Shown: piece after piece, positions 14,880-50,332 of the stretch
Numbering within the stretch: the first letter of the stretch is position 1
Layout: each line of letters starts with the position of its first letter
Assembly: GCA_020851375.1 (NCBI GenBank)
Contig: JADZCV010000044.1
Coordinates: 192,285 to 256,284, forward strand
Length of the DNA: 64,000 nt
From: Nitrospirota bacterium
GTDB taxonomy: Bacteria > Nitrospirota > 9FT-COMBO-42-15 > HDB-SIOI813
Direction: 5' to 3'
Notes under the pieces: generated by a model
What the model saw: only the letters and a program-made list of their open reading frames with translations
Told to the model about the DNA's origin: nothing
Database searches by the model: none
Program-made: the position numbers and the translations under genes

Positions 14880-15106
14880 CTGAAAATAACTCCTATCTGT
14901 GTGTCATTCCCACGGAATGTGTCCCCGCAGGATTTAAGCGGGGAGTGGGAATCCAGAACCAGACCCAGGTCTGGATTCCCGCTTTCGCGGGAATGACGTT
15001 TTCATTAAATCCTGCAGGGACAGGTTCCGCGGAAATAACGTTTTTCATTACACCTTGTGAGCCCTGAGCTGTGGGCCTGCCGAACAGCCGAAGGGCTCAT
15101 CGCGCT
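14880..15106 (-). repeat. composite palindromic intergenic repeat, copy 1 (leader + hairpin + core + module C)
   Basis: Contains aggag-N10-GTG leader, ccccgcaggatttaagcgggg hairpin, nested palindrome gtcattcccacgg...gggaatccagaacc...ggtctggattccc...cgcgggaatgacg, and gtgagccctgagctgtgggcctgccgaacagccgaagggctcat palindrome. Confidence 0.85.
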
Positions 15107-17023
15107 TCACTTATAAATCCTCTCAGCCAGAGACGCCCCGTCCACCCGGTGATATTTCAGAACCTCCTGTGGCGTCCCCCAGACAGGGTAGTCGTCTATG
15201 GCGATTTTATCGTATCGCCTGCCTCTCAGTTTTTCTGATTCGTTCAATTTATTAAGCAGGGAATCGCCCAATCCGCCGCGGGAGAAGTGATTGTCCAGAA
15301 CATAAATAACGCGGCATCCGCCGACAACCCATGCAAACCATTCTTTGTCCACACGGTTCAGCCAGGGCATATTGACAACCTTCAGCGAAAAACCCTTCTC
15401 ACTCAATAACTCTGATGCAAGGAGCGCTTCATTTAACATCACCGGGCCGTAAGCAAAGAGCACGGCATCCCCTCCATCCATCAGGACAGTTCCCTTCCCC
15501 ATCTCAAACCTGTAATCTTCGGGAAGGTCTATCTTTCGCGGAGAGGGCGAGATGGCAAGTCTCATCATGCAGTTCTCCTTTGTCCTGTTGACGCTCCACT
15601 CAAGGACTGCCTTGGTCTCCTGACTATTGCCTGGTTCCATTATGACAAAGTTCGGCAGGGCAGCAAAAAGGGATATGTCCCTCAGGCTCTGGTGCGACTT
15701 GCCGGGGCCTGCAGGGATCAGGCCCGCGTAATGGCATACATAGATTATCTTTGTCCCCTCTGTAGCATTATTGTATATCTGCTCATTGGCCCGTGAGGAT
15801 AGAAAGACGCCGAATGAATTGACGACCGGTAGAAGGCCCTGCAACGCAAGCCCTCCGGCCATGGAGACCATGTCCTGCTCTGCTATCCCGTTCTCGATGA
15901 AGCGGTCCGGAAAGGCCGTCTCAAAGGGGCGCAGTCCGCAGTCAGCAGACAGGTCGGCATCAAGTACAACAATATCCTCTCTCCCCTTCCCTGCCTCTAC
16001 CAGCGCCTCACCGAAGGCAGTAACTACCTTCTCTGCAGTATCCTTTAGCCTGGTCCTGTTCTTCTCCCTTGTCTCAACCACTTCAAGGGACAGAGGTTCC
16101 ATGCTGCATTTTTTGAGATCCGTGTTGATCCTGTCGAGTACCTCCTGCAAGCCCCTTTCATAGGCATCATCATCCGGGGCGCCTGAATGCCAACGATAGA
16201 GTCCATTCCCCTCTTTCAATGAGGCCGGCCCCTCCATAAAGGAAATCCCCTTACCCTTGACAGTGTCTGCAATCAGGAGTTTTGGCTTATCTGAAATACT
16301 GCTCAACTTGCCAAACACCTTGTCCATGGCAGCAAAATCGTGCCCATCGCACCGCTCCACATGCCATCCAAAGATCTGAAACTTCTTCCCGATGTCGCCG
16401 AGGTTTATGATCTCTCCCACAGGCTTGTCTGTCTGAATCTTATTATGGTCAACGATCACCGTGATATTGCATATCTTCTGATGGGCTGTCGTCTGCAGGG
16501 ACTCCCAGATCTGCCCCTCCTGGAGTTCTCCGTCTCCGGTCATCACAAAGACTCTTCCCCCGGACCCCTGCATCTTCCTGGCCCAGGCCATCCCCTTCCC
16601 CTTCGATATCCCCATCCCGAGGGAGCCGGTGTTAGCCTCCATCCCAGGAATGCTCACATCAGGGTGGCCGTCTAATCCGCCAAGGCGCCTTAATTTTAGA
16701 AGGTGATCCCATGAGAGGATGCCGGCGGCAAAGAGTGCTGCATACTGACCTGGACAGTCGTGCCCCTTCGATGAATAATAGATGTCCCTGTCAGGGCTGC
16801 TGAGGCCTGCCTTCACTGTGTTCAGCTCGTCGAAGTAGAGCATCACGTTGATGTCCAGGGCGCTCAGGCTGGAGCCCAAGTGGCCCGAGCCTGCCTTTTT
16901 CACGGCTGACAGCGCATTGATACGGCACATGTCGCTGACAATCCGCAGTTTCCAAAACTTATCTGACCTTGAGTTCCATACCCGCTGAAATTCACTGTAT
17001 GGAATAAATGAAATGTTCAGCAT
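15107..17023 (-). CDS. transketolase-family protein, fused N-terminal (TPP-binding) and C-terminal (pyrimidine-binding) subunits
   Basis: SGHLGSSLSALDINVMLY and GDGELQEGQIWES (TPP site) in the N-half; FIENGIAEQDMVSMAGGLALQG in the C-half; 638 aa. Confidence 0.75.
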   Translation of the reverse strand: MLNISFIPYSEFQRVWNSRSDKFWKLRIVSDMCRINALSAVKKAGSGHLGSSLSALDINVMLYFDELNTVKAGLSSPDRDIYYSSKGHDCPGQYAALFAAGILSWDHLLKLRRLGGLDGHPDVSIPGMEANTGSLGMGISKGKGMAWARKMQGSGGRVFVMTGDGELQEGQIWESLQTTAHQKICNITVIVDHNKIQTDKPVGEIINLGDIGKKFQIFGWHVERCDGHDFAAMDKVFGKLSSISDKPKLLIADTVKGKGISFMEGPASLKEGNGLYRWHSGAPDDDAYERGLQEVLDRINTDLKKCSMEPLSLEVVETREKNRTRLKDTAEKVVTAFGEALVEAGKGREDIVVLDADLSADCGLRPFETAFPDRFIENGIAEQDMVSMAGGLALQGLLPVVNSFGVFLSSRANEQIYNNATEGTKIIYVCHYAGLIPAGPGKSHQSLRDISLFAALPNFVIMEPGNSQETKAVLEWSVNRTKENCMMRLAISPSPRKIDLPEDYRFEMGKGTVLMDGGDAVLFAYGPVMLNEALLASELLSEKGFSLKVVNMPWLNRVDKEWFAWVVGGCRVIYVLDNHFSRGGLGDSLLNKLNESEKLRGRRYDKIAIDDYPVWGTPQEVLKYHRVDGASLAERIYK

Positions 17024-17035
17024 TACACCTCCTCC

Positions 17036-18526
17036 TCAATCCTTCTTTTCAAATTGGACATTCTGGATCTTTGCACTGTAGTCCACATACAATGTCTTTA
17101 CCTCAGAGAAGGCCTCGATGGCCGCCCATCCGGACTCACGGTAACCCAATCCGGAATCCTTGAGCCCTCCGAAGGGCATGTGCGGCTCCCCGCCGAAGGT
17201 AGGGGCATTGATATAGCAGACCCCTGTGTCTGCGTCGTCAAAGAAAGAAAACGCGCGGTTTACATCTCTCGTAAAGAGTGAGGCCGAGAGTCCATAGGGG
17301 GACGCATTGTGGATCCTTATGGCATCCTCATAGGAGCCGGACTTAAAGAGAGTCAGCACAGGGCCGAAGACCTCTTCGCGAGCGATCTCCATCTCAGGGG
17401 TGACATTGTTTAAGACAGTCGGTGCGATGTAATACCCCTTGTCATACACTCCCCCTTTTAGCTGTTCTCCCCCGGTCATGACCTTTGCCCCCTCTTTTTT
17501 GGCACGCCCGAGATAACCCATAACCCGGTCAAACTGTTTCCTGCTGATAAGCGGGGTAACATCAGAGCCCGCATCACTCCCCGGGCCGACCTTTTGTTTT
17601 CCGGTCCGTTCAAGGAGCCTCTCAAGAAAGGCGTCATACACGCGTTCGTGGACGATCACCCGGCTGGTGGCTGTGCAGCGCTGACCGGAAATGGAGAATG
17701 CCCCGCAAACCACACCATCCACTGCGAGGTCTATATCTGCATCCTCCATGACAATCACTGCGTTTTTTCCGCCAAGCTCAAGCGATATCTTCGCCAGCCT
17801 TGCAGAGCAGTTTTTCCCTATGATCTTTCCGGTCGAACTTGAACCAGTAAAAGATATCATGGAGACATCAGGGTGGAGAGTCATGGCCTCTCCTGCTTCC
17901 TGACCAAATCCATGGATAAGGTTCAGGACGCCCCTCGGCAATCCGGCCTCTTCCAGGATCTTTACAAAATGCACAGCCGTTTCCGGTGTATTCTCCTCAG
18001 ATTTTAAAACAACGGTATTACCGCAGAGGAGTGCAGGAAATGTCTTCCAGGCGGTGATTGCCATCGGAAAGTTCCATGAGGTGATGATCCCAACCACGCC
18101 AACAGGATATCTCTTTGTCATTGCAAAGCGCTTCCTTAGACCTGAATGGGACGTCCTTCCGAAGAGCCTGCGCCCCTCGCCAGCAGCGTAAAAGGCCATG
18201 TCAATCCCGGACTGCACATCACCCATTGCGCCATTCACGGTCTTTCCATTCTCCCCTGAGATTACCTCCGCAAGCTCCCTCTTCCTGGAGGTCATGATCC
18301 GGCCCGCCTCATAGAGGATCTTCCCCCTCTCAGGTGGCGACACACCCTTCCACGCTTCAAAGGCAGACCGGGCGGCAGAGACCGCCCTGCCGACATCCTC
18401 CGCAGTTGAGCGCGGGAAGAGGCCGAGAACCTCATCAATATTGGATGGATTCCGGTTCTCGAAGGTCTGTCCTGAGACCGAGTCTACCCACTCTCCGTTG
18501 ATATAATTCTTAAAGGTAACTGTCAT
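17036..18526 (-). CDS. NAD(P)-dependent aldehyde dehydrogenase family protein
   Basis: LELGGKNAVIVMEDADIDLAV and catalytic-Cys region FSISGQRCTATSRVIVHE; 496 aa. Confidence 0.85.
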   Translation of the reverse strand: MTVTFKNYINGEWVDSVSGQTFENRNPSNIDEVLGLFPRSTAEDVGRAVSAARSAFEAWKGVSPPERGKILYEAGRIMTSRKRELAEVISGENGKTVNGAMGDVQSGIDMAFYAAGEGRRLFGRTSHSGLRKRFAMTKRYPVGVVGIITSWNFPMAITAWKTFPALLCGNTVVLKSEENTPETAVHFVKILEEAGLPRGVLNLIHGFGQEAGEAMTLHPDVSMISFTGSSSTGKIIGKNCSARLAKISLELGGKNAVIVMEDADIDLAVDGVVCGAFSISGQRCTATSRVIVHERVYDAFLERLLERTGKQKVGPGSDAGSDVTPLISRKQFDRVMGYLGRAKKEGAKVMTGGEQLKGGVYDKGYYIAPTVLNNVTPEMEIAREEVFGPVLTLFKSGSYEDAIRIHNASPYGLSASLFTRDVNRAFSFFDDADTGVCYINAPTFGGEPHMPFGGLKDSGLGYRESGWAAIEAFSEVKTLYVDYSAKIQNVQFEKKD

Positions 18527-18559
18527 GTCCTGACCTCCACTATGATGTTCACAGAAATT

Positions 18560-18645
18560 CCTTTCGCATCGTCATTCCCACGGAAGTGGGAATCCAGAAC
18601 TATGCCCGCATTCTGGATTCCCGCTTGCGCGGGAATGACGGGTCC
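18560..18645 (-). repeat. palindromic repeat, copy 2 (core module only)
   Basis: cgtcattcccacggaagtgggaatccagaactatgcccgcattctggattcccgcttgcgcgggaatgacg between the ALDH start and the SDR stop. Confidence 0.85.
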
Positions 18646-18647
18646 GC

Positions 18648-19457
18648 TCACCAGCAACTGAATCCACCGTCAATGATCAGGTTGCTACCTGTCATATAGG
18701 ACGAGGCGTCTGATGCAAGAAACAATATTGCACCGTTGTATTCATCCTGCCCCGCCATGCGGCCGAGGGGAACCTTGTTGCTGTAATTACTGAGAAAGGT
18801 CTCATCCTGATTGTTAAAGACACCACCGAGTGTCAGCGTATTCACCCGGACGCCGCTCTTCGACCAGTAGGTCGCAAGATACTTCGTAAGGTTGATGACT
18901 CCACCCTTGCTGACCGCATAGGTGACTGGTTTAAAAAACGGTTTTTCCCTGTACTCATATATCCTCTGGTCCGGCGACAGTATCCCGTAGATTGACGAGA
19001 TGTTGATAATTGACCCGCCGCCCGATTTTGCCATATGGCCTCCGATCACCTGACAGCACAGGAAGGTCCCTTTCAGGTTTACATCCATCATTATACTCCA
19101 CGATGCCTCGGGATAGTCCTCGAATGGGCCGGTCTCCTGCTCATCCGCGTTCGGCGGTGCGTCTATGGCGGCATTGTTGATCAGAATCCCGGGGTCCCCG
19201 AACGTGGATATGACCTTCTCCAATCCCTGTTCAATTGATTTCCTGTCAATGATGTTGACTTGTACCAGGAGCAGTTTGTCTGAAACAATCTCACTGAGCC
19301 TCCCCTTTGGATTGCCGGGATTGAGATCAAAAGCGGCCACAGAGGCGCCTGCGCCAAGAAGGGCGCGCACATATTCCCCACCGAGCTGCCCGGCCGCGCC
19401 GGTAACGATGGCTACTTTGCCGGAGAGGTTAAATAGCTTGTCAATTATTTGTTTCAC
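18648..19457 (-). CDS. SDR-family oxidoreductase
   Basis: GKVAIVTGAAGQLGGEYVRALLGAGASV Rossmann motif; YAVSKGG catalytic YxxxK; GTG start preceded by repeat-borne GGAG. Confidence 0.8.
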   Translation of the reverse strand: MKQIIDKLFNLSGKVAIVTGAAGQLGGEYVRALLGAGASVAAFDLNPGNPKGRLSEIVSDKLLLVQVNIIDRKSIEQGLEKVISTFGDPGILINNAAIDAPPNADEQETGPFEDYPEASWSIMMDVNLKGTFLCCQVIGGHMAKSGGGSIINISSIYGILSPDQRIYEYREKPFFKPVTYAVSKGGVINLTKYLATYWSKSGVRVNTLTLGGVFNNQDETFLSNYSNKVPLGRMAGQDEYNGAILFLASDASSYMTGSNLIIDGGFSCW

Positions 19458-19787
19458 CTGAAAATGCTCCTATTCACCCTTCATTCCTACCGAACCAGTC
19501 CCCGCATGATTTAAGCACCCGTCATTCCCACGGAAGTGGGAATCCAGAACCAGGCCCACGGTCTGGATTCCCGCTTACGCGGGAATGACGTTTTCATTAA
19601 CCCTGGTGAGCCCTGAGCTGTGAGCTTGTCGAACAGTCGAAGGGCTCATGACGGTTCACCTTAAAATCCCCGTTATTTACCGCAAAGGCACAAAGGACAC
19701 AAAGAATTATATTTCAGATACATCATCCAAAAATGCTCCTATATACCCGTCATTCCTGCCTTCGCGGGGATGACGTTTTCATGATAC
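19458..19787 (-). repeat. composite palindromic repeat, copy 3 (full element plus truncated second copy)
   Basis: Leader acctgaaaatgctcctat, hairpin, core gtcattcccacggaagtgggaatccagaaccaggcccacggtctggattcccgcttacgcgggaatgacg, module C gtgagccctgagctgtgagcttgtcgaacagtcgaagggctcat, a CAAAG-repeat tract, and a second short copy (aaaaatgctcctatatacccgtcattcctgccttcgcggggatgacg). Confidence 0.85.
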
Positions 19788-20306: not shown

Positions 20307-20307
20307 T

Positions 20308-22372: not shown

Positions 22373-24311
22373 TAGGATCTTCGCCCCGGATAAATATCCT
22401 GCACCACATTTCCATTAAGATAATTTTATAGGAAAAGAATAAATCTTCCCCCCTGGAAATACTCCTGTCTATAAATGCCATTACCGCATCCCTTTTCACC
22501 ACGCCGCCTGAGACCAGGCAGCCGTCATGGCATAAACTGCCATACCTGCTGATCACGGCATTATACCAATCCTTTACAGGCGGCGTAAATCCCCTCTTCC
22601 GCCTGTTCAGTATTTCATCAGGCACAATACCCTTCATTGCATCAATAAACCATTTCTTATACCCCAGCTTATAGTCATCTTTATATGTCTTTCTCAATCC
22701 CATTATCAGTTCTACAAACCTGTAATCAAGAAAGGGGAGACGGAGTTCAACAGAAGAGGCCATACTCATTCTGTCCCCCAGGGCAACACAATTGGAATAG
22801 AGCCATGTCTGATACAGGATTTTGCAGATTTCAATCGGGACCTCATCCCAATCTTTGCCGGTAAAAAAGGAAAATAATTCTTCCTCCTGGATCTTCTGTT
22901 TGAACTCCTCCCTGTAAAGGGTTTCCAGATAACCAAAGGCTGATAAAAAATCATCATCATCATAAAGAATAAATGTGTCTGGTTTGGATAATACCTTGTC
23001 GTACCGAACCCTTATATTTTTAAAATTGTTAATCACAGAGATTACAGCCGGTATCATCTGCTGTCTTTTTCCGATATTTCTGATATCTGTATAAATATTT
23101 TTTATGAGTAACTGCAGGGATTGTACTTCATTATTGGAAATGGACTTTTGTTTCTGCAGGTTTTTTTCAACCGCTGTTGTAACCCCCAGATATCCCCAGA
23201 AAAGCTCATCCCCTCCTATGCCGCTCAATATAACCGGGACATTGTGCCTCCTGGCGAGTTTGTTGACAGAGTAATAACCAAAGGCTGCAATATCTGCAAT
23301 AGGATCATCCATGGCATAGACCATTTCAGGAAATGAGTTGACAAGGTCTTCTGTGTTTAATTCTATTTCATGATATGAAAAGCCAAGCTGATTTGATAAC
23401 CCCATGGCCATCTCTCTCTCATCGTTCTGCGGATGTCCCGGATATCCGACACTGAAGGCATGCATCTTTTCCTTGTAATATCTGGCGCCCAATACAGCAA
23501 TCGCGCTTGAATCTATACCACCTGATAAAGAAATGCCCACAGGCACATCGGACCTGATGATAATCCCCGACAGGTCTTCAAATGCCTCTCTGATGAGCTG
23601 GGATGGGTTTCCGGACACGGGTTTCACGTCTTCAAAATCCCAGTACTTTCTCAGTTCATATTCAAAGGGATTTAAAGAGACCATCATGTAATGGGCGGCA
23701 GGGAGTTTCAACACCCCCTCAATGCATGTATAGGGTTCCGGCACGTACTGATAGTGAAAGTACATATTTACTGCATCCGGATTTAACCTGACATCCTTTT
23801 CGCGCAGGCAGACCAGTAAAGATTTCATCTCTGATGAAAAAACGACCCCATCCTCTGTCTTATAGTAGTAGAGTGGTTTTTCGCTTAAACGATCCCTTGC
23901 AATAAAAAGCGTCTGTCTCTTTTTATCAAAGAGCGCAAAGGCGAACATACCCCTGAGGTTTTGAAGGCATGCCTCTCCTGATTCCTCGTAGAGATGCAGG
24001 ATCGGCTCACAATCACTTTGAGTTTTAAATTTGTGACCCCTGTTTTCCATCTCTTTGCGAAGTTCGATATAATTATAAATCTCGCCGTTAGCCACCAGCA
24101 CAAGGGATCCATCCTCATTGTACAGCGGCTGATTCCCGCCTGCGAGGTCTATTATCTTCAAACGCCGCATGGCAAGGGCAATATTCGTATCCTGATAAAA
24201 ACCCATGCTGTCCGGGCCGCGGTGAACCAGCGCATCATTCATCCTGTTCAGGATTGCGATATCCGCTGGCTTCAATGGATTGCTGCTTATCAGGCCTGTG
24301 ATGCCGCACAT
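22347..24311 (-). CDS. asparagine synthetase (glutamine-hydrolysing) family amidotransferase, polysaccharide-associated (WbpS-like)
   Basis: MCGITGLIS N-terminal nucleophile Cys2; SGGIDSS PP-loop; 654 aa. Confidence 0.8.
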   Translation of the reverse strand: MCGITGLISSNPLKPADIAILNRMNDALVHRGPDSMGFYQDTNIALAMRRLKIIDLAGGNQPLYNEDGSLVLVANGEIYNYIELRKEMENRGHKFKTQSDCEPILHLYEESGEACLQNLRGMFAFALFDKKRQTLFIARDRLSEKPLYYYKTEDGVVFSSEMKSLLVCLREKDVRLNPDAVNMYFHYQYVPEPYTCIEGVLKLPAAHYMMVSLNPFEYELRKYWDFEDVKPVSGNPSQLIREAFEDLSGIIIRSDVPVGISLSGGIDSSAIAVLGARYYKEKMHAFSVGYPGHPQNDEREMAMGLSNQLGFSYHEIELNTEDLVNSFPEMVYAMDDPIADIAAFGYYSVNKLARRHNVPVILSGIGGDELFWGYLGVTTAVEKNLQKQKSISNNEVQSLQLLIKNIYTDIRNIGKRQQMIPAVISVINNFKNIRVRYDKVLSKPDTFILYDDDDFLSAFGYLETLYREEFKQKIQEEELFSFFTGKDWDEVPIEICKILYQTWLYSNCVALGDRMSMASSVELRLPFLDYRFVELIMGLRKTYKDDYKLGYKKWFIDAMKGIVPDEILNRRKRGFTPPVKDWYNAVISRYGSLCHDGCLVSGGVVKRDAVMAFIDRSISRGEDLFFSYKIILMEMWCRIFIRGEDPNAIKLNIV

Positions 24312-25438
24312 AATATAGCCTCTTTGACCCCTTCGGCGGTATGTTCGGCGCCGTAGTTTCTTATCATTTGCCTGGATGCGTCAGCCATTTTCTGCCTCAG
24401 GCCGTTGTCTGCAGTCATCTTCTTCATGGCATTATATAATTCATGGGGATCACTGTCCCGTACAACAAAACCATTTACACCGTCTCTTACCAGATCAGCC
24501 GATGCCCCCACTTTATCCGTTGTGATTACAGGCAGGCCGGATGCCATCGCCTCGTTGATTACCAGTCCCCAGACCTCTTCATGAGAGGGTAGCAGGAACA
24601 GATCAGCGAGGCCGAAATACCGCGGCAACTGTTCATATTCAACAAAACCTGCGAATACCACATCGTCTATATTTTCCTGAAGGCATCTCTTTTTCATGGC
24701 ATCTTCTTCCATACCAGCGCCGGCAATCAATAATGTCACATCTTTAATATCTTTCTTTAACCAGGAAAATGCAGATAACAGATCATATACCCCTTTTCTT
24801 TCTATCAACTGACCTGCATACAACAAGGCTAATCCTGTCTTTATCCCCAGCTTGAATCTTAATGCCTCCCGCTCCTCAGTTGTCATTCTGGAATTAATTT
24901 CAAAGAAAGAGTTGTCCACTGTATTCCATCCCATGAATATCCTGTCTTTCTCTGCGCCCAGATCCATAAGATATTCCTTTGCCCTCGTCCCATAGGCAAT
25001 ATACGAATCCGAATTCCTTACAAGGTATTTTACAAGAGGCTTGCTAACCGTCCTGCGCCACGAGGGCTCATTGATCGTACTCCCTGACCAGAGGATGAAT
25101 TTCTTATTGTAAATCCTGCAATAGATGTACGCCATGTATGATGCGAGAGAATCCCAGCCGCAGGATACAACGACATCGGGACAGGCATTCTTAAGCTCTG
25201 AAAAGGCCGTGTAATTGATGTGCATGGTGAAGATGTCTTTTCCCTTCATCCTAAACGGTGTGTCTGGAAGGATTTTGTATTTAAATCTCAGGCGGGAGAG
25301 GTCAAATCTCCAGTTCCTGTTCATATCCGTTTCATTCTGAAAGAAGACTGTCAGATTATTATCCAGGACTTCGTTAAGGACATTGAAGCGTTTAATCTCA
25401 TAAGGCGTTATGACATTTTCTATGATTACAATCCTCAC
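24290..25438 (-). CDS. GT4 (group 1) glycosyltransferase
   Basis: EVWGLVINEAMASGLPVITTDKVGASADLVRDGVNGFVV, the E-x7-E GT4 motif region. GTG start at 25438 directly downstream of repeat-borne GGAG. Confidence 0.8.
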   Translation of the reverse strand: MRIVIIENVITPYEIKRFNVLNEVLDNNLTVFFQNETDMNRNWRFDLSRLRFKYKILPDTPFRMKGKDIFTMHINYTAFSELKNACPDVVVSCGWDSLASYMAYIYCRIYNKKFILWSGSTINEPSWRRTVSKPLVKYLVRNSDSYIAYGTRAKEYLMDLGAEKDRIFMGWNTVDNSFFEINSRMTTEEREALRFKLGIKTGLALLYAGQLIERKGVYDLLSAFSWLKKDIKDVTLLIAGAGMEEDAMKKRCLQENIDDVVFAGFVEYEQLPRYFGLADLFLLPSHEEVWGLVINEAMASGLPVITTDKVGASADLVRDGVNGFVVRDSDPHELYNAMKKMTADNGLRQKMADASRQMIRNYGAEHTAEGVKEAILCAASQA

Positions 25439-25557
25439 CTGAAAATGCTCCTATATACCCGTCATTCCTGCGTAAGCGGGAATCCAGACCGATGGCCTGG
25501 TTCTGGATTCCCACTTCCGTGGGAATGACGTTTTCTCTGTCCCTTTTTCTTATCCAT
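25439..25557 (-). repeat. palindromic repeat, copy 4 (leader + core)
   Basis: ctgaaaatgctcctatatacccgtcattcctgcgtaagcgggaatccagaccgatggcctggttctggattcccacttccgtgggaatgacg. Confidence 0.85.
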
Positions 25558-26292: not shown

Positions 26293-27406
26293 AATGGTTA
26301 ACCTCTTCCGTAATTGTTGATACCTCCGCATCTGTTAACTGGGGAAACATGGGGATGGAGACAATCTCCCTGGCAAGTCTCTCTGCAACAGGAAAACTTC
26401 CTGCCGGACATCCGAGGTCTTTATATGCCTCCTGCAGATGGACCGGCACAGGATAATGTATCGTTGTCTTAATCCCCTTTTCTTCTAAATAACCCTGAAG
26501 CCTATCCCTTTCAGGGTGTCTTATCACGTAGAGGTGAAACACATGCCTGCCATAGCTCATTACAGGAGGTTTTTCAACACGTGGGTTTGTGATCCCGTTA
26601 CTATAGTAGTCCGCAATCTTTCTGCGGCGACTGTTCCAGTCATTCAAATAGTTTAACTTGACCCTCAGGATTGCGGCCTGCAGCTCGTCCAGTCTGCTGT
26701 TGAACCCTTTGATCTTGTGATAGTAGCGTCTATCCTGACCATAGTTCCTAAGCATCTTCAGCCGTTGTCCCTCTCCGGCATCACGCGTCACGATAAGCCC
26801 TCCATCTCCATAGGCGCCAAGATTCTTGCTCGGATAAAAACTAAACGCGGCATAATCCCCCATAGTACCCGCCTTCCGGCCCTTGTACTCAGCCCCGTGG
26901 GCCTGACAGGCATCTTCTATCACCTTCAGACCAAACTCTGTCGCGATCTCAAGGATCGGATCCATATCCGCACACTGGCCATAGAGGTGTACCGGGACGA
27001 TGGCCTTAAGCCTGTTCCCCCAACGCCTCTTCTCCCTCGTAACAACCTCTCTGAGCTGGGCAGGGTCCATGTTGTAACTGCGCGGGTCCACGTCAACAAA
27101 CAGCGGAATCGCCCCTGCAAGACTAATAGCCGAAACAGTGGGCACTGCGGTATTGGGGACAGTAATGACGAGATCGCCATATTCTATACCCGCTGCCACC
27201 AGAGCAAGATGTATGGCCTCGGTACCGGACCCCACCCCCACGGCATGGACATCGCTCCCAAGGTATTTAGCGAATGCTGACTCAAAGCGCTCCCCTTCCT
27301 CACCGAGAACAAACCAACCCTTTTCACACACCCCCCTGATAGCCTGCCCCAGTTCGCCCGTAAGCTCCCGGTATTCCCTGCTCAAATCACCAAACGGTAT
27401 CATCAA
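26285..27406 (-). CDS. DegT/DnrJ/EryC1/StrS-family PLP-dependent sugar aminotransferase
   Basis: MIPFGDLSREYREL... AVGVGSGTEAIHLAL... IVPVHLYGQCADMD... KVIEDACQAHG. Confidence 0.85.
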   Translation of the reverse strand: MMIPFGDLSREYRELTGELGQAIRGVCEKGWFVLGEEGERFESAFAKYLGSDVHAVGVGSGTEAIHLALVAAGIEYGDLVITVPNTAVPTVSAISLAGAIPLFVDVDPRSYNMDPAQLREVVTREKRRWGNRLKAIVPVHLYGQCADMDPILEIATEFGLKVIEDACQAHGAEYKGRKAGTMGDYAAFSFYPSKNLGAYGDGGLIVTRDAGEGQRLKMLRNYGQDRRYYHKIKGFNSRLDELQAAILRVKLNYLNDWNSRRRKIADYYSNGITNPRVEKPPVMSYGRHVFHLYVIRHPERDRLQGYLEEKGIKTTIHYPVPVHLQEAYKDLGCPAGSFPVAERLAREIVSIPMFPQLTDAEVSTITEEVNHYG

Positions 27407-27586
27407 TGATGGCCACCCATTCCCGTCATTCCTGACATCCCCGTCATTCCCGACATTCCCGACATCCCCGTCATTCCCGACATCCCCGTCATTCCTGACA
27501 TCCCCGTCATTCCTGACATCCCCGTCATTCCCGCGGAAGCGGGAATCCAGATCCCTGCATAAACCCTTCGGCAGTTTCCCGCCTTA
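27407..27586 (-). repeat. repeat copy 5: 18-bp tandem array plus terminal hairpin
   Basis: About 6.5 tandem units of ccccgtcattcc[c/t]gacat between about 27419 and 27540, then cccgcggaagcgggaatccag hairpin. The unit is an expansion of the cgtcattcc arm of the repeat family. Confidence 0.85.
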
Positions 27587-27871
27587 AAGAATCTCTTCAC
27601 ACAAATCTCGCCAATCAGGATTCTGCTTCTCTATCAATTCCAGCTTCCAGCTTCTATTCCATTTCTTTATCTGTTTTTCTCTGCTAATAGCCGATTCCAT
27701 ATCTTCATGTAATTCGTAATAGACAAGACGATGAATACCGTATCTTTTCGTGAAACCCTCGACCAAATCATTTTTGTGTTCCCACGTTCGCTTGATAAGG
27801 TCGCTAGTCACTCCAATATAAAGAGTACCGTTTCTCTTGCTGGCAAGGATATAAACCGCTGGTTGCTTCAC
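27587..27871 (-). CDS. GIY-YIG nuclease-superfamily small protein (COG2827/UPF0213-like)
   Basis: VKQPAVYILASKRNGTLYIGVTSDLIKRTWEHKNDLVEGFTKRYGIHRLVYYELHEDMESAISREKQIKKWNRSWKLELIEKQNPDW, the canonical GIY...YIG...R...E...N architecture. GTG start at 27871 preceded by GGAG with 8-nt spacing. The longer track ORF (to 28003) merely translates the upstream repeat. Confidence 0.8.
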
Positions 27872-28113
27872 CTGAAAATGCTCCCATTTACCCGTCATTC
27901 CCACGGAACCTGTCCCCGCATGATTTAAGCGGGAAGTGGGAATCCAGATCCAGGCCTCGGTCTGGATTCCCGCTTTCGCGGGAATGACGTTTTTCTTGAT
28001 CATTTCTGGATTCCAGCTTCCGCGGGAATGATGTTTTTCTTGACCATTTCTGGATTTCCGCTTTCGCTGGAACGACGTTTTCGTGACACCTTGCGAGCTC
28101 GAGGCTCATGACG
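27872..28113 (-). repeat. composite palindromic repeat, copy 6 (leader, hairpin, core, two degenerate core half-copies, module C)
   Basis: ctgaaaatgctcccatttacccgtcattcccacggaacctgtccccgcatgatttaagcgggaagtgggaatccagatccaggcctcggtctggattcccgctttcgcgggaatgacg... then ttccgcgggaatgatg / ttccgctttcgctggaacgacg degenerate arms, then gcgagctcgaggctcatgacggttcacc. Confidence 0.85.
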
Positions 28114-28115
28114 GT

Positions 28116-31437: not shown

Positions 31438-31452
31438 CCCCGATTGACAACA

Positions 31453-35057: not shown

Positions 35058-35081
35058 GGATACCCTCCCTGATTAATTTCT

Positions 35082-38468: not shown

Positions 38469-38493
38469 CCCATGCCTTATCTTTTTCTCTGCC

Positions 38494-39318: not shown

Positions 39319-39331
39319 CTTGTATCCTTAT

Positions 39332-41314: not shown

Positions 41315-41473
41315 TTAAGCAACCTATAGTTTATCACAGGCAGGTTCAAAGATCCTCTGATTCGCGCTGAATCCCTTTGATCTTCAGGCAGGCTGCCGCC
41401 ATTACGGGCGCCCCCGTCCATGAGAAATCCGGGTATGAAACCTTTCCTGAAACCCCTGCTCCCTTCCTGCCTT
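41315..41473 (-). promoter_or_regulatory. probable promoter/leader region of the polysaccharide operon
   Basis: 159-bp non-coding gap immediately upstream of the first gene (39332..41314) of a roughly 41-kb minus-strand gene train with almost no other gaps. Confidence 0.3.
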
Positions 41474-42154: not shown

Positions 42155-42353
42155 TTAATCAAGAAGTTATTTTATTTTACCATAAAAATTGGTATCAATG
42201 AAGTACAGTTTTTTGCTCGACATGATTGTTTAATTTATTCTTTATGTTTTTTTTTAGAACATCAAATCTAAAGAGAGGTCTCAGCATAAAGATTCTTGCT
42301 TAAAAATCAAATAGTTATGAAATAATGACCCTAAATTACCAACCCCTGTATCC
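42155..42353 (-). promoter_or_regulatory. AT-rich intergenic region, probable promoter of the regulator gene
   Basis: About 200 bp of strongly AT-rich non-coding sequence (tttttttagaacatcaaatctaaag...) upstream of 41474..42154. Confidence 0.3.
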
Positions 42354-45913: not shown

Positions 45914-47649
45914 TTCTTCTTTTCCCCGGTACTATCCAGGAGGGCCTGAAGACGCACCCTCGTTTCCGCATGTGAGGGGTCCAGGGCAGCGGCATTCTGA
46001 TAGGCACGAATCGCCTCCTCGAACCTCCCCTCCTTCGTGTAGAGCACTCCCAGGTTAAAGAATGGCAGGTAGTTGTTGCTGTGACGCTGTATTGCCTTCA
46101 TAAAGATCTCTTCTGCAAGCCCCGGCCTGTTCTGTTCATAGTATATGATCCCGAGGTCATTATATATCTGCAGATTACCCGGATTGCCTTTAAGCAGATC
46201 TTCCAGTTCAGTGGCCGCAAGGTCCAGTTTCCCCTGGACTATATATATCTGGGCAAGGTTGTGTCTCGCTGTCAGACTCTCCTGTCCATCATGGATCGAG
46301 ATACTTGTGCGCAATGACTCAATGGCCTGATCATACATCTTCATGTCTTTGTATGCAATCCCAAGTCCTGCATGTGCGATGGATGAACCCGGGGCCTTTT
46401 TTACTGTATCTGTCCAGAGGGTCAGGTCATCCCTCCACTCCGTGTTCCGTATAATGGTCACTGCAGAATATGCTGCGCAAAGGGCAATCAAGAGAAACAG
46501 GGCAGCGGCCCGGGACACAGAACTACTCAATTTATCCAGGACAACACCTGCAAACACTGCCATAGTTATTATTGCCAGATATCCCCTGTGCTCCTGCAGT
46601 ATCAGGTTAAGGGGGATAACTGTCGTAGGCAGAAGCACGATAAAAAACCAGAACATGAAGAATGAAACAACCCGCCAGGACGCTGTGGATGACCGGAAAA
46701 GAAGCAGGGCAACTGCAGTATAGACAGAAAGCACAACTGCAGAAAAGATGACTGGAATCGTGACAGTCCTGTAGACCTCCATGTCGTGGACCAGGGTTAA
46801 TGGTATGGGGACAATAAACATCTGCAGATATTTAACAAGTGCAGGAAGTTCCGTAAAAAACTGGGTTACCGGATCCCTCTTAAATGAGTGAGGCGCCCCG
46901 CTGAAGGCAACCCCCCAGACATAGAGATAGGGTATGACCACAATAAGGATAAATGGAAGGTAGGGGGTATATTTGCGCCAGTCCTTTAAGTGGCGCTGTG
47001 CAGGGGTGCGTCGTTCCCGGAGGAGGTATACGTCATATAGCCATAATACGAGGGGAAGGGTGACGGCAGACTCCTTGCTCAGCATCCCTGCTGCAAAGGA
47101 AAGCAGGGATGCAATATAAAAAAAAAGGTTTAGATCCCTCCGGAACCTGACCCAGCAATAAAAGGCAGACAGATAGAAGAAACCGCTCATGACGCTGGAG
47201 CGCGTTGATATGTAATTTACGATCTCTGAGTTGAAGGGGTGGACGAGAAAGATGATGCCTGCTGACAGGGCCGCAAAAAAGGCCGGGGTGGTGAATATGG
47301 CCCGGACTATCAGAAAGAGCAGAAAGGCTGACCCGGCATGAAAGGCGAGGTTGACTATGTGGTATCCTGCAGGGTTTAGACCATTTACCCGGAAATTCAG
47401 TGCATAGGTCAACATCAGGAGGGGCCTGTACGGAGAGCCCCTTTTCATCCCCTCATTGCTGAATGTGGAGGGATCGGAAAAAAGGGAAGATAGCCCGGAC
47501 AGGTCCCGTATACCGGGATTCATGGTGATATGGTGGGCATCATCGTAGTGAAATGGATTGTGTATCGAGTTGTAGTAGAGCAGTCCTGCGATCAGTACAA
47601 AGGAAAGGAAGGTAGTGCAGACTATAACCCGGTTACTGTAACGACTCAT
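45910..47649 (-). CDS. TMTC-like protein (membrane domain + TPR), paralog 2
   Basis: First-loop HNPFHYDDAHHI motif, LVHPFNSEIVNYISTRSSVMSGFFYL block shared with the paralog at 62353, C-terminal TPRs (LGIAYKDMKMYDQAIESL...). Confidence 0.7.
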   Translation of the reverse strand: MSRYSNRVIVCTTFLSFVLIAGLLYYNSIHNPFHYDDAHHITMNPGIRDLSGLSSLFSDPSTFSNEGMKRGSPYRPLLMLTYALNFRVNGLNPAGYHIVNLAFHAGSAFLLFLIVRAIFTTPAFFAALSAGIIFLVHPFNSEIVNYISTRSSVMSGFFYLSAFYCWVRFRRDLNLFFYIASLLSFAAGMLSKESAVTLPLVLWLYDVYLLRERRTPAQRHLKDWRKYTPYLPFILIVVIPYLYVWGVAFSGAPHSFKRDPVTQFFTELPALVKYLQMFIVPIPLTLVHDMEVYRTVTIPVIFSAVVLSVYTAVALLLFRSSTASWRVVSFFMFWFFIVLLPTTVIPLNLILQEHRGYLAIITMAVFAGVVLDKLSSSVSRAAALFLLIALCAAYSAVTIIRNTEWRDDLTLWTDTVKKAPGSSIAHAGLGIAYKDMKMYDQAIESLRTSISIHDGQESLTARHNLAQIYIVQGKLDLAATELEDLLKGNPGNLQIYNDLGIIYYEQNRPGLAEEIFMKAIQRHSNNYLPFFNLGVLYTKEGRFEEAIRAYQNAAALDPSHAETRVRLQALLDSTGEKKK

Positions 47650-48443
47650 GGAGACTTAGCGCACCGGAAGCCCTGATCATAAGTAGTATGCCAGTCAAGC
47701 CCTCTCGTAGCAAGAGAGGACTCAATTGCATAACGGGAAGACGTTCGGGCATAACGATACAGGGGGGTCACGTACGACCCTCCACGCACTGACCTGTAAT
47801 TTCCACTGTAATATCCGTCCGGCAATGTATTTCCAGGATAGGCCTCATACCACCCGCCAGTCCACTCCCGCACATTACCGGTCATGTCATAGACTCCATA
47901 GGGGCTGACATCTTCAGGATAACTTCCAACAGGCGCACTCCATTTTCTACCTGACTCGAGGGTATTTGCCTTCCCTGCAGCATACTCATCCCCCCAGGAC
48001 CAGAGCCTGCCGTCCGTTCCACGGGCTGCCTTCTCCCACTCCGCCTCTAATGGGAGCCGCTTGCCAACCCATGTGCAATAGGCATCTGCATCCATCCAAT
48101 CTACATCAACGACCGGATGGTCATGCTCACCCTTTTCAAAGGTTCCCATCTCAGCCCAGGGAGCCGGGCGGTATACATTGTTTGTTTTAATTAGAAATTC
48201 ATAAAACTGGGCATTGGTGACCTCGTAACGGTCTATGTAAAAATCCTTTACATAAACCCTGTGCCTGGGGATTTCATCCACTCCTATCGTCATACCAAGC
48301 CGTCCTTCAGTTCCGCTGCTCCCCATCTCAAACCATCCAGCCGGTACAAAGACCATATTCTCCGGAGGTGAATTGCCGCGCATATTATACTGATGACTGC
48401 AGCCAAACAGTAGGGTTGCTAAAAGAAAGAGCACAGGAAGCAT
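47646..48443 (-). CDS. FGE-sulfatase (SUMF1/formylglycine-generating enzyme) domain lipoprotein, paralog A
   Basis: Lipobox MLPVLFLLATLLFGC at chosen start 48443 (the track start is 48614). Domain motifs RVYVKDFYIDRYEVTN, YCTWVGKRLPLEAEWEKAARGTDGRLWSWGDE, GVYDMTGNVREWT, RGGSY. Confidence 0.75.
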   Translation of the reverse strand: MLPVLFLLATLLFGCSHQYNMRGNSPPENMVFVPAGWFEMGSSGTEGRLGMTIGVDEIPRHRVYVKDFYIDRYEVTNAQFYEFLIKTNNVYRPAPWAEMGTFEKGEHDHPVVDVDWMDADAYCTWVGKRLPLEAEWEKAARGTDGRLWSWGDEYAAGKANTLESGRKWSAPVGSYPEDVSPYGVYDMTGNVREWTGGWYEAYPGNTLPDGYYSGNYRSVRGGSYVTPLYRYARTSSRYAIESSLATRGLDWHTTYDQGFRCAKSP

Positions 48444-48471
48444 CTTTTGTCTCCTTTCACCGGGAATATCA

Positions 48472-49302
48472 TCATAGACCATCCACAGCACACCGGAATC
48501 CGTGGGCCGGGTGGTCCCACTTTGGGGCAACTGCATGCCTGTAGGCACTCCTCGCAAAGGGCACGGACGGGTTCTCCCATGACCCGCCGCGTAAAACCTT
48601 GTATTTCTCACCAAATGCCTCCCTTTGAAGGGTACTGCCTGGATACGGCTTATACCATGATGATGTCCACTCCATCACACTCCCGGCCATATCGTAAATC
48701 CCGTAAGGGCTCACACCCTCAGGATAACTTCCGGCCGGTGTTGTCCAACCTGCTCGGGCCTCTCTCGTATTTGCCATTATCTTTCCTTCCGGACCAAAAA
48801 AATCATTTCCCCAGGGCCATTGACGGCCATCGGTTCCCCTTGCGGCCTTTTCCCACTCCTCTTCTGTCGGGAGCCTCTTACCAGCCCAACGGCAATAAGA
48901 ATCCGCATCATACCAGGATACGCCCTTCATCGGGTGAGTATCTTCCGGTTCAGGATAAACATTAATATATGACTCAATTGTCCATATCCTCGGGGCCTTT
49001 CTACCCGTGACATCCAAAAACCTCCTGTATTTCTCAACCGTAACCTCGAAACGGTCCATATAAAACCCATTCACATAGACACTGTGCTGAGGGATTTCAT
49101 CTACCCCCACTGATTGGCCAGGGATGCCATCATCTTCCCTGCTGCCCATAAGAAACCACCCTTCAGGTATATACACCATATCCGTGGTGTCTGGAACCGG
49201 TTTCACGCTGCTCACGGTATGAATGCACCCCGCAAGTAAGAGGACCGTCGTAAGACACACTGCAACCCGGCAGTTATTAATGAGCCCTGTCATCTTCCGC
49301 AC
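48472..49302 (-). CDS. FGE-sulfatase domain lipoprotein, paralog B
   Basis: Lipobox VCLTTVLLLAGC. Motifs YMDRFEVTVEKYRRF, YCRWAGKRLPTEEEWEKAARGTDGRQWPWGND, GIYDMAGSVMEWT, RGGSW. Confidence 0.75.
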   Translation of the reverse strand: MRKMTGLINNCRVAVCLTTVLLLAGCIHTVSSVKPVPDTTDMVYIPEGWFLMGSREDDGIPGQSVGVDEIPQHSVYVNGFYMDRFEVTVEKYRRFLDVTGRKAPRIWTIESYINVYPEPEDTHPMKGVSWYDADSYCRWAGKRLPTEEEWEKAARGTDGRQWPWGNDFFGPEGKIMANTREARAGWTTPAGSYPEGVSPYGIYDMAGSVMEWTSSWYKPYPGSTLQREAFGEKYKVLRGGSWENPSVPFARSAYRHAVAPKWDHPAHGFRCAVDGL

Positions 49303-50134
49303 AACGAAAACCTATTCCCCTGTGCCTGTAATCAGGCTTGAAGGTATTGGCCCGGTATGCTGCCCTGCTGTATGGCATGGCCGGCATAACTAACGACCCG
49401 CCCCGTGTGACTTTGTATGTCTCTCCAAAGGAATCCCTCTTAAGGGTGCTCCCAGGGTAGGGGAGGTACCAGGAGCTGGTCCATTCGCTCACATTACCGC
49501 ACATATCATAAACTCCATAAGGGCTTACGTCATCGCTGACACTTCCCGGAGGAAGGATCTGTCCCGGGCCTGCATACCGGGTGTTGCAGGTATGTCCTCT
49601 AAGATCACTCCCCCAGGGCCATTGGCGGCCGTCTGTGCCCCTTGCAGCCTTTTCCCACTCCTCTTCTGCAGGGAGCCTCTTTCCAGCCCAACGGCAGTAG
49701 GCATCCGCATCGTACCAGGTTATATTCGAGACAGGGATGTCTTCAGTTCCTTCTGGCGGGGTGTTGCCTTTCCACGAAGATGCCCCGGGATGTTTATCAT
49801 CAGGCGCTGAATGGCCGGTCGCATCAATGAAGGCCTTGTACTGACGGTTAGTCACCTCGTACCTGTCAATATAAAATGCCTTCAGATATACTGACCGCTG
49901 GGGAATCTCATCCACCCCCACGGACTGGCCCACCAACCCATCCTTCTCAGTGCTACCCATGATGAACTCTCCTGCAGGTACATGCGCCATCTGTTCCTCA
50001 GTCACCGTCTGACCGGCAGATGATGCAGTCACGACCATTCCTGCCAGGAAAACCTGCACTAATAAAAACAATGCGCCTGCCTGCTTCACCTGATTTTCAT
50101 CTGCCTTTGTGAGCCCTGGCTCATGACGGTTCAC
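49277..50134 (-). CDS. FGE-sulfatase domain protein, paralog C (signal-anchor N-terminus)
   Basis: YIDRYEVTNRQYKAF, YCRWAGKRLPAEEEWEKAARGTDGRQWPWGSD, GVYDMCGNVSEWT, RGGS. GTG start at 50134; the first roughly 10 codons lie inside the repeat's module C. Confidence 0.75.
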   Translation of the reverse strand: MNRHEPGLTKADENQVKQAGALFLLVQVFLAGMVVTASSAGQTVTEEQMAHVPAGEFIMGSTEKDGLVGQSVGVDEIPQRSVYLKAFYIDRYEVTNRQYKAFIDATGHSAPDDKHPGASSWKGNTPPEGTEDIPVSNITWYDADAYCRWAGKRLPAEEEWEKAARGTDGRQWPWGSDLRGHTCNTRYAGPGQILPPGSVSDDVSPYGVYDMCGNVSEWTSSWYLPYPGSTLKRDSFGETYKVTRGGSLVMPAMPYSRAAYRANTFKPDYRHRGIGFRCAEDDRAH

Positions 50135-50332
50135 CTGAAAACGCTCCTATTCTCCCGTCATTCCCACGGAACCTGTCCCCGCAGGATTTTTCACCCCGTC
50201 ATTCCCACGCAAGTGGGAATCCAGAACCAGGCCCACGGTCTGGATTCCCGCTTACGCGGGAATGACGTTTTCATGAACCCTGGTGAGCCCCGAGCTCATG
50301 ACGGTTCATCCAAAAATGCTCATGTGTAGCTG
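50103..50332 (-). repeat. composite palindromic repeat, copy 7 (module C inside the CDS N-terminus, leader, hairpin, core, second module C)
   Basis: gtgagccctggctcatgacggttcac + ctgaaaacgctcctattctcccgtcattcccacggaacctgtccccgcaggat... cgtcattcccacgcaagtgggaatccagaaccaggcccacggtctggattcccgcttacgcgggaatgacg ... gtgagccccgagctcatgacggttcat. Confidence 0.85.

Follow-up and report, generated by a model that had tools for sequence, protein, structure and literature searches.

The palindromic repeats of a 64,000-nt stretch of contig JADZCV010000044.1 (positions 192,285 to 256,284 of the forward strand, hereafter the window) from a Nitrospirae metagenome-assembled genome (MAG) very probably belong to the NTS/SRM hairpin family, first called dRS3/NIME in Neisseria, and occur together with a gene for the nuclease SsnA in mosaics of the NIME or BIME kind. 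SsnA represents the Ssn family of GIY-YIG enzymes, site-specific endonucleases of single-stranded DNA (ssDNA) that were described together with these repeats (Chenal et al., Nat Commun 2025, PMC11893778). An initial annotation of the window had listed seven intergenic loci (14880-15106, 18560-18645, 19458-19787, 25439-25557, 27407-27586, 27872-28113 and 50103-50332) built from four modules, all of which are indeed present in the sequence; overlooked at that time were the NTS/dRS3 identity of the core and ssnA, the putative cognate nuclease gene between two of the seven loci.

The core of the repeats is a doublet of two inverted 28-nt units joined by CCAGA-N12/13-TCTGG, each unit being composed of GTC, ATTCCC-N8-GGGAAT and CCAG. 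This unit matches the Neisseria Transformation Sequence (NTS; CGTCATTCCCGCGMAVGCGGGAATCYRG), which contains the dRS3 core. Scanning with the NTS consensus yielded 13 units in 64 kb at up to three mismatches (0 expected), of which three are perfect and three carry one mismatch, the deviation from the 28-nt motif that is also tolerated in PMC11893778. All perfect copies (14971-14998, 18613-18640 and 27962-27989) are located on the minus strand. Since every sizeable open reading frame (ORF) between 0.5 and 64 kb lies on this strand as well, the elements are read on the minus strand. The published degenerate SRM pattern, as transcribed for the scan, gave five matches (0.25 expected), again all on the minus strand; these are the five G-type units introduced below, and A-type units and module 4 are missed by it. 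Other motif counts likewise exceed chance for all motifs tested: 16 copies versus 0.8 expected for GTCATTCCC, 6 versus 0 for the inner palindrome GGGAATCCAGA-N10-16-TCTGGATTCCC, 10 versus 0.01 for the 20-bp dRS3 core ATTCCC-N8-GGGAAT, and 4 versus 0.02 for GGAGCRTTTTCAGGTG. Families D2, D4, D5, D7, D8, D9, D13, D15 and D17 of a repeat finder correspond to these modules, with 61-100% identity to the reference copy (91% for the 167-nt D9, 88% for the 113-nt D13).

The seven loci had been described as recombinations of the same modules; the doublet is found in six of them only, locus 27407-27586 consisting of one hairpin and an 18-nt tandem array. Doublets usually pair two different arm subtypes, which in the window are ACGNAAGT (A-type) on one strand and GCGNAAGC (G-type) on the other. 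In doublet 1 (14902-14998), an A-type unit on the plus strand (14902-14956, with the module-2 hairpin inside) is joined to a perfect G-type unit on the minus strand (14971-14998), with an ssDNA fold of -29.7 kcal/mol (z -6.0). The same polarity is displayed by doublet 2 (18570-18640; units 18570-18597 and, perfect, 18613-18640), which lies between the genes for an SDR and an ALDH protein, by doublet 3 (19520-19590; units 19520-19547 and 19563-19590), which folds with -27.7 kcal/mol on the minus strand (z -6.6) and -29.4 kcal/mol on the plus strand (z -7.9), by doublet 5 upstream of ssnA (27893-27989; units 27893-27947, again with a module-2 hairpin inside, and, perfect, 27962-27989), and by doublet 6 (50197-50267; units 50197-50224 and 50240-50267). 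Only doublet 4 (25460-25530) is reversed, its G-type unit being on the plus strand (25460-25487) and its A-type unit on the minus strand (25503-25530). Because the units mostly occur as such inverted, non-identical pairs, each DNA strand carries one sense copy.

The ssnA gene (27584-27871, minus strand) lies between loci 5 and 6, i.e. with a repeat on either side, and starts at an element-borne GTG. It encodes a single-domain GIY-YIG protein of 95 aa (VKQPAVYILASKRNGTLYIGVTS...; Pfam GIY-YIG, E=9e-16, sole Pfam domain), which displays 67% identity (E=3e-48) to a 94-aa N. gonorrhoeae protein taken as SsnA orthologue. The latter served as stand-in for N. meningitidis SsnA, to which a tblastn E value below 1e-10 is demanded in PMC11893778, and the window protein falls well within this limit. 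Residues Y7, Y18 and E65 align to gonococcal Y6, Y17 and E64, the residues mutated in that study. Judged by its sequence, ORF 27584-27871 very probably encodes SsnA, the cognate enzyme of the repeats. The gene is flanked downstream by a single NTS with one mismatch (27523-27550, plus strand), whose local hairpin is present in the ssDNA fold, and upstream by inverted minus-strand copies at 27962-27989, 28006-28033 and 28050-28077, the last two being degenerate members of a 44-nt tandem array of 2.8 copies (27961-28081, minus strand; NTS plus spacer). This NTS-ssnA-NTS architecture is the same as that reported in PMC11893778. It recurs around a 91%-identical homologue (P0002), where an inverted NTS bracket is found in five of the five contigs that extend past both gene ends, and a sixth contig ends within the downstream unit. 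Altogether, at least 8000 homologues of the window protein were retrieved, among them a GIY-YIG protein with 99% identity (NCBI, 'MAG: Nitrospirae bacterium') and proteins with 80-91% identity in MAGs of Nitrospira, Nitrospinae, Armatimonadetes and Deltaproteobacteria.

In PLSDB, tblastn gave a match in two 2.17-Mb N. gonorrhoeae records, NZ_CP119140.1 (L212, 1880778-1884056) and NZ_CP119142.1, which are filed there as plasmids and look like mislabelled chromosomes. The gonococcal ORF of 94 aa carries Y6, Y17 and E64 and is surrounded by 16 NTS copies within 3.3 kb, the ACGAAAGT subtype among them; in NZ_CP119140.1, it has no annotated feature. NCBIfam offers no specific model for the window protein, its one weak match being a group I intron endonuclease. 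Candidates from other searches were rejected: a PDB sequence search gave spurious WD40 repeat matches and a weak UPF0213 GIY-YIG match, and PADLOC and PHROGs returned marginal matches only.

Covariation was analysed in 60 distinct units from the window and 120 listed loci of other genomes. The unit hairpin has an 8-bp stem (single-unit DNA fold of -10.1 kcal/mol), the six outer pairs of which are invariant, and the two inner pairs covary (GC/AU/UA/CG and CG/UA/AU). Double-change cells number 33 versus 8.4 +/- 2.1 in shuffles, a value reached in 0 of 500 shuffles, and the signal collapses in slid registers. The loop reads G-N-R-A in sense orientation only (GAAA, GCAA, GGAA, GTAA, GAAG, GCAG); sequences of the GCGAAAGC type give DNA mini-hairpins of unusual stability. 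A comparison of 37 distinct doublets showed local stem-extension pairs in 142 of 148 cases and cross-arm pairs in 93 of 148, with exactly complementary arms in only three doublets. Since local pairs prevail to this extent, selection evidently maintains two local hairpins and not a long one. Module 3, previously seen as one nested palindrome, is therefore present as a sequence but is better described as two separate inverted 28-nt hairpins. The GC hairpin called module 2 exists as well, though not as a free-standing module, as both complete copies (14902-14956 and 27893-27947) sit in the loop of an A-type hairpin arm; module 4 is a second, CGTCAT-type hairpin, and module 1, believed to be a leader, is in reverse complement a Shine-Dalgarno (SD) sequence with a GTG start codon.

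According to Chenal et al., SsnA is a 94-aa single-domain GIY-YIG enzyme with catalytic residues Y6/Y17/E64, which binds the NTS hairpin as ssDNA only and cuts sequence-specifically a few nucleotides upstream of it, on one strand only; it is inactive on double-stranded DNA and on RNA, the RNA form not even being bound, and lowers transformation by NTS-bearing DNA (PMC11893778). Transferred to the window, each unit would fold locally whenever the DNA is single-stranded, as in transforming or conjugative DNA or in the lagging-strand template. SsnA would then bind the unit hairpin in a sequence- and strand-specific manner and, following the Neisseria biochemistry, cut a few nucleotides 5' of CGTC, and inverted doublets would render both strands cleavable. 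By analogy with N. meningitidis, single-stranded copies of the variable surface-polysaccharide locus may be cut at module boundaries in this way, modulating recombination and gene exchange. GIY-YIG enzymes hydrolyse DNA and cannot rejoin it; hence, joining would have to be done by host repair or recombination. As to strand, the five SRM-pattern units and the five module-4 copies share the minus strand, and the GC skew of the plus strand is uniformly negative across the window. The minus strand would accordingly be the lagging-strand template if the skew reflects replication, for which gene orientation is a confounder.

The sense strand of module 1, TAGGAGCATTTTCAGGTG, consists of an SD sequence, an 8-nt spacer and GTG, and this GTG is the predicted start codon of four genes on the minus strand: the SDR gene (18648-19457; module 1 at 19455-19472), a GT4 glycosyltransferase gene (24290-25438; 25436-25453), ssnA (27869-27886) and, in the variant TAGGAGTTATTTTCAGGTG, a cytidylyltransferase gene (14175-14879; 14877-14895). 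Pfam domain positions agree with these starts; in the cytidylyltransferase, for instance, the CTP_transf_3 match begins at residue 5. A further minus-strand copy (50132-50149) is directly followed by the module-4 hairpin (GTG-AAC-CGTCATGAGCC); its GTG at 50134 is the first in-frame start of the third paralogue in a series of formylglycine-generating-enzyme-like (FGE-sulfatase) genes and reads through that hairpin, and the true start of this gene may be the second TCAGGTGAAGCA motif 45 nt downstream. The SDR orthologue of contig L132 starts at the same codon position behind GGGGCATTTTCAG-ATG. In more distant orthologues, which have no spacer, the start is an ATG three codons further on, a position at which the window keeps ATA. 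In loci of related Nitrospirae MAGs, CGTGGGAATGAC is followed in 10 of 22 cases by ATG or GTG at +21 to +23, opening an ORF of at least 100 aa (118-575 aa observed; chance about 0.02 per site, p about 3e-12). An added effect of the elements on translation is plausible.

Homology between copies ends at GTG(A); in copies not followed by a gene, the sequence continues with AAC-CGTCATGAGCC, i.e. module 4. On the gene-sense strand, the composite unit would read CGTCAT hairpin (module 4), NTS doublet, SD and GTG, with units arranged head to tail. From the oligonucleotide numbering of PMC11893778 (20-nt labelled product, critical positions G26 and C49), the cut of Neisseria SsnA would be placed about 4 nt 5' of CGTC; the equivalent here would be GGT^GAAC-CGTCAT, within 1-3 nt of the homology breakpoints. 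Because units end at about this point, abut head to tail and lend their GTG to five genes as predicted start codon, the arrays probably grew by break-and-repair or by insertion at the SsnA cut site. A GGTGAA-like insertion target is hinted at by two upstream genes that end in TGGTGA directly before an element, the SDR gene and an epimerase gene (TGA inside GGTGAAC).

The comparison with orthologous loci adds to this picture. A block of genes for NeuB, HAD, SDR, ALDH and transketolase proteins is syntenic in dozens of metagenome contigs. Its HAD-SDR junction is an overlap or 2 nt in contigs L134 and L135 and 29-180 nt in others versus 330 nt in the window; for SDR-ALDH, 11-30 nt in most orthologous contigs (e.g. 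TGAgggaggttATG) compare with 121 nt. As the orthologous junctions are so much shorter, the elements are evidently insertions into a compact, conserved nonulosonic-acid operon. They also differ between relatives with 84-93% identity: at the SDR-ALDH junction, many contigs are empty, L132 (93% aa identity) holds a single collapsed palindrome (1923-2011; CGTCATTCCCGCG-TG-CGCGGGAATGACG) with flanks as in the window, the window holds the doublet, and L135 (84%) holds module 4, doublet and module 1. At this one junction, which was compared with empty orthologous sites, no target-site duplication was found. The collapsed palindromes (L132 1923-2011 and window 19748-19775) keep only the outer stems of the doublet, a form that would fit either a precursor state or slippage in which the hairpin top was lost. 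At the same SDR-ALDH junction, L134 (3805-3868), L146, L150, L154 and L156 carry unrelated palindromic repeats (e.g. CCGCAGATTACAC...TGCATAATCTGCGG), and the site seems to attract hairpin elements of several families. Furthermore, in two independent short-read Logan assemblies a 100%-identical SDR protein is encoded on contigs of about 930 bp that end inside doublets on both sides, as would be expected of a repeat with multiple copies.

A scan of GTDB representative genomes for the inner palindrome gave the same doublet at 120 or more loci of other genomes. Among the matches listed, the MAGs are labelled with about 20 different phylum- or class-level groups. At least 19 doublet loci were found in Nitrospirae MAG JACRHF01, at least 8 in Nitrospirae MAG JAHFER01, at least 15 in a Rhodothermales MAG, often at contig ends, and at least 17 in two Dehalococcoidia MAGs; also listed are Saccharibacteria and other members of the candidate phyla radiation, Elusimicrobia, Melainabacteria, Verrucomicrobiota, Planctomycetes including Jettenia, Ignavibacteriales, Bacteroidetes, Gemmatimonadaceae and alpha-, gamma- and delta-proteobacteria. 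Two isolates, Altererythrobacter fulvus and Methylocystis suflitae, are among the matches listed. At least 15 contigs of the Rhodothermales MAG JBBSMV01 carry at or near their ends an identical doublet-containing element with conserved flanks, 120 bp long or more (loci L025, L031, L035, L037, L040, L044, L046, L051, L070, L077, L079, L087, L097, L117 and L120), which indicates a recent high-copy burst that fragmented the assembly. In Dehalococcoidia, a longer palindromic element with conserved inverted flanks (...CTATCGCATATAGAAACC / GATAGGTAAG...TATATGCGAT; L009, L011, L047, L048, L054, L083, L084, L104, L106 and others) has the doublet, with arms GTGAAAAC and ACGAAAGT, at its centre, which suggests that lineage-specific composite elements have been built around the same NTS pair.

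Several observations weigh against an SsnA-cut NTS family. At only 2 of the 120 listed doublet loci (L049 and L073, directly adjacent in both) was an ssnA homologue detected within 8 kb by tblastn; such a low adjacency is expected for a dispersed repeat, and co-occurrence is not thereby demonstrated. The A-type arm ACGNAAGT is 2-3 mismatches off the Neisseria consensus, and changes of the stem sequence can abolish SsnA activity (PMC11893778), so that half of the sites and all module-4 hairpins may not be substrates of the window enzyme. Moreover, folding predicts one long hairpin as the preferred structure of the single-stranded doublet (-27 to -30 kcal/mol, z about -6.0 to -7.9), which would compete with the local hairpins. 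Finally, the cut position used above is a reconstruction and not a coordinate given in PMC11893778. For the multiplication of copies, repair-mediated copying or insertion at cut sites would be the likeliest route. A further-reaching idea, to be regarded as rather improbable, is that the composite unit of CGTCAT hairpin, NTS doublet, SD and GTG is a non-autonomous mobile element, which spreads through SsnA cuts in ssDNA and host repair without any transposase and inserts or recombines at GGTGAA-like gene-boundary sites, bringing along a ribosome-binding site (RBS) and a start codon. If true, translation initiation would be rewritten inside operons, the SDR gene having gained three codons relative to its more distant orthologues.

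Among other explanations, the inverted-doublet architecture, the long-hairpin fold, of which all six window doublets are capable, and the intergenic head-to-tail mosaics are reminiscent of REPINs and BIMEs, and the analogy is drawn by Chenal et al. themselves (PMC11893778). In that case, a RAYT, i.e. an IS200/IS605-like HUH tyrosine transposase, would have moved the doublets as single-stranded hairpins. However, neither a RAYT with its Y1 domain nor any other transposase, recombinase or integrase was found among the 41 window ORFs scanned; the repeat-bracketed gene encodes a GIY-YIG protein instead, and the unit is in exact agreement with the NTS consensus, its flank being GTC and not the REP-type GTAG. 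REPs are lineage-specific, whereas this unit sequence recurs across phyla. On the whole, mobilisation by a RAYT is very unlikely. Only a trace more credit is due to classical miniature inverted-repeat transposable elements (MITEs), derived from insertion sequences with a DDE transposase and characterised by terminal inverted repeats (TIRs) and target-site duplications. Of the MITE/REP-like mobile or recombining family suggested by the initial annotation, the REP-like class is the right one, and a classical MITE does not fit the window. It is true that the elements are short, palindromic, multi-copy and missing at orthologous sites, and that a related cassette around the P0002 gene (L123-L128) has TIRs of about 26 bp outside the NTS pair and apparent duplications of 8-9 bp. 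Yet the SDR-ALDH insertion lacks a duplication, window copies vary in module content and have no fixed ends, and the window contains neither the P0002-type TIR nor a transposase.

A role at the RNA level, with intercistronic stem-loops that stabilise or process polycistronic mRNA and provide an RBS, the link to the nuclease being secondary, is suggested by the location of all elements between co-oriented genes, by the GNRA-like loops, and by module 1, which offers an SD and a start codon 22-23 nt past the hairpin in the window and in related MAGs. This function nevertheless appears improbable as the primary one. Each doublet has one unit per strand, doublet 25460-25530 is inverted relative to the other five, no terminator-like tail occurs in sense orientation, Rfam at gathering thresholds gives no match for the elements, and the unit is conserved across phyla in sequence and not in structure alone; moreover, Neisseria SsnA does not bind the RNA form (PMC11893778). 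Terminator-like matches at the elements are restricted to the plus strand, antisense to the genes, and their total is not above that in shuffles; ARAGORN detected no tRNA or tmRNA. Least of all can integron-like gene cassettes with the palindromes as attC sites be believed in. The SDR gene and ssnA each lie singly between imperfect palindromes and all genes share one orientation, but no integrase is among the 41 ORFs scanned, most inter-repeat blocks are multi-gene and up to 22 kb long, and in place of shuffled cassettes there is an operon with conserved synteny. The cores of attC sites are RYYYAAC/GTTRRRY, and the ends of the elements read GTCATTCCC/GGGAATGAC. Integron, CRISPR and terminator readings were consequently rejected, there being no integrase, no attC cores and no U-run on the sense strand.

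The window can be compared with known systems. Repeat and enzyme have been known since 2025, and the new aspect here is the lineage, Nitrospirae. In common with NTS/SRM-SsnA, the window has the 28-nt unit (three perfect copies of CGTCATTCCCGCGMAVGCGGGAATCYRG), the hairpin, the flanking GTC and C determinants, the bracketed single-domain GIY-YIG protein with its Y/Y/E residues and the clustering of repeats round surface-structure genes. By contrast, its host is a Nitrospirae MAG ('Nitrospir' is absent from the text of PMC11893778), its units mostly form tight heterotypic inverted doublets with a 13-nt spacer, and these are combined with the module-4 hairpin and SD/start codon. Three features, which can serve as leads, are according to text searches not mentioned in PMC11893778: the occurrence of the tight heterotypic doublet as a unit across phyla, a composite unit ending in the SD and putative start codon of downstream genes, and unit junctions that coincide with the predicted position of the cut. 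NIMEs, in which dRS3 units flank RS elements, share the dRS3 core (10 copies in the window) and are likewise intergenic mosaic arrays whose unit number and length vary between relatives; according to Bentley et al. (2007, PMC1797815), they contain about 100 families of 50-150-bp RS spacers versus 13 nt (doublets) or 44 nt (array) here, and the window has no dRS3-targeting phage or IS110-type recombinase. The same paper states that NIME arrays had not been seen outside Neisseria as of 2007; here, the closest protein comes from a Nitrospirae MAG and the doublet from many phyla among the matches listed.

REP/REPIN-RAYT systems and BIMEs of Enterobacteria and Pseudomonas are similar in that ssDNA hairpin repeats are read by a small, possibly domesticated, repeat-flanked nuclease and in that inverted doublets and mosaic arrays are formed. 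They differ by using an HUH tyrosine transposase, as opposed to a hydrolytic GIY-YIG enzyme incapable of rejoining on its own, and the unit sequence of the window is common to several phyla. The Correia repeat-enclosed elements (CREE) of Neisseria are also small palindromic intergenic insertions, often upstream of genes whose expression they affect, but they show no sequence similarity, and the window elements lack a TA duplication and 51-bp terminal repeats; a supply of SD and start codon, as found here, is not described for CREE in the available part of PMC1797815. The present findings place the NTS/SsnA system in uncultured, groundwater-type Nitrospirae, inside a surface-polysaccharide cluster. 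The occurrence of the doublet in about 20 groups supports the claim of wide spread made in 2025 (PMC11893778) and contradicts the older, Neisseria-specific view of dRS3 arrays. How the repeats spread and affect gene expression was left open by PMC11893778, and the series of empty, collapsed, doublet and composite states at one junction, together with the start-codon end, provides a handle on both. In practical terms, the repeats explain assembly breaks at such loci, spurious ORFs and mis-called starts, as in the NCBI model of SsnA. This model (P0001, 104 aa, MTGKWEHFQVKQP...) takes as its start an ATG within the NTS (GGGAATGACGGG, 27872-27898); close homologues begin with MSKQPAVY, the window protein with VKQPAVY. 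Mechanical ORFs at 27138-27587 (plus strand) and 27584-28003 (minus strand) run through repeats, and translation of the repeats yields peptides (SFPRKRES, VIPAKAGIQ and LDSRLRGND, for example) from which spurious database proteins are likely to arise.

Two homologues of ssnA are found in other settings. The P0002 gene and its inverted NTS pair lie inside a discrete unit of about 560 bp, which ends in imperfect TIRs of about 26 bp (GGGTCTTCTCCCAATCGAGTGGGTA ... TACCCACTCACTTTGGAGAAGACCC), is found in at least four different flanking contexts and has apparent direct duplications of 8-9 bp (TATATTTT in L123, TACCTATAA in L126); it resembles a MITE that carries a passenger and is moved by a DDE transposase. 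In the case of P0050 (85%-identical SsnA; L129-L131, among them a 3.8-Mb Nitrospiraceae chromosome), the ssnA gene overlaps with a gene for an N6/N4 DNA methyltransferase at the stop codon of the latter. The island that holds both also contains genes for a ResIII helicase, AAA ATPases and toxin-antitoxin systems; only one NTS is present, on the downstream side, and the setting resembles a defence island more than a repeat array.

The remaining parts of the window loci comprise further module copies and remnants. Module 4 is represented by five copies, all on the minus strand, which keep the NTS flanks GTC and 3' C around a different stem, a property shared with the NTSvar of PMC11893778; the four intact ones come after GTGAAC and the mutated one after GTGAAG. 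The copy at 19606-19653 reads CGTCA-TGAGCCC-loop-GGGCTCA-CC and is preceded by GGTGAAC (ssDNA fold of -13.9 kcal/mol, z -3.85), the copy at 15057-15104 has a mutated 5' end (CGCGATGAGCCC...GGGCTCAC), and the other three are short: 28093-28113, where the TGA stop of the upstream epimerase gene lies within the preceding GGTGAAC, 50283-50303, preceded by a degenerate module 1 (50304-50324), and 50109-50128, directly after module 1. On the minus strand, a degenerate module 1 (19724-19741) comes after the collapsed palindrome at 19748-19775 (CGTCATTCCTGCCTTCGCGGGGATGACG). Half-NTS with partial module-2 remnants are present at 19479-19519 and 50156-50195 on the plus strand and at 15003-15041 on the minus strand. 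The 18-nt tandem array (6.4 copies, 27418-27533, family D1) is derived from the GGGAATGACGG half of NTS. A small conserved ORF (MKTSFPRKRESR...), opening with ATGAAAA before the G-type unit, occurs in three loci only and was therefore treated as a by-product.

The region constitutes a surface-polysaccharide and nonulosonic-acid cluster with genes for NeuB, cytidylyltransferase, DegT aminotransferase, GT2 and GT4 glycosyltransferases, methyltransferases, epimerases and an ABC-2 exporter, followed by the FGE-sulfatase paralogues, a multihaem cytochrome, and TPR and fn3 proteins. The seven loci account for 76% (1419 of 1866) of the intergenic bases from 11.1 to 53 kb, so that the earlier statement that the repeats make up nearly all intergenic space is roughly right, apart from two repeat-free spacers. 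Located at 41315-41473 and 42155-42353, on either side of the gene for a 226-aa winged-helix (HTH_24) regulator, these are the cluster's only long intergenic spacers devoid of NTS-type repeats and possibly represent real promoter regions. Other repeat families in the window have a different origin. The three tandem FGE-sulfatase paralogues (47646-50134, minus strand) correspond to families D6, D10, D12 and D16, which are unrelated to the NTS elements, and the gene for a 1779-aa fn3 protein (56163-61502) contains direct repeats of 149-282 nt with 75-77% identity (59762-61074, minus strand; D3 and D11), presumably encoding repeated protein domains.

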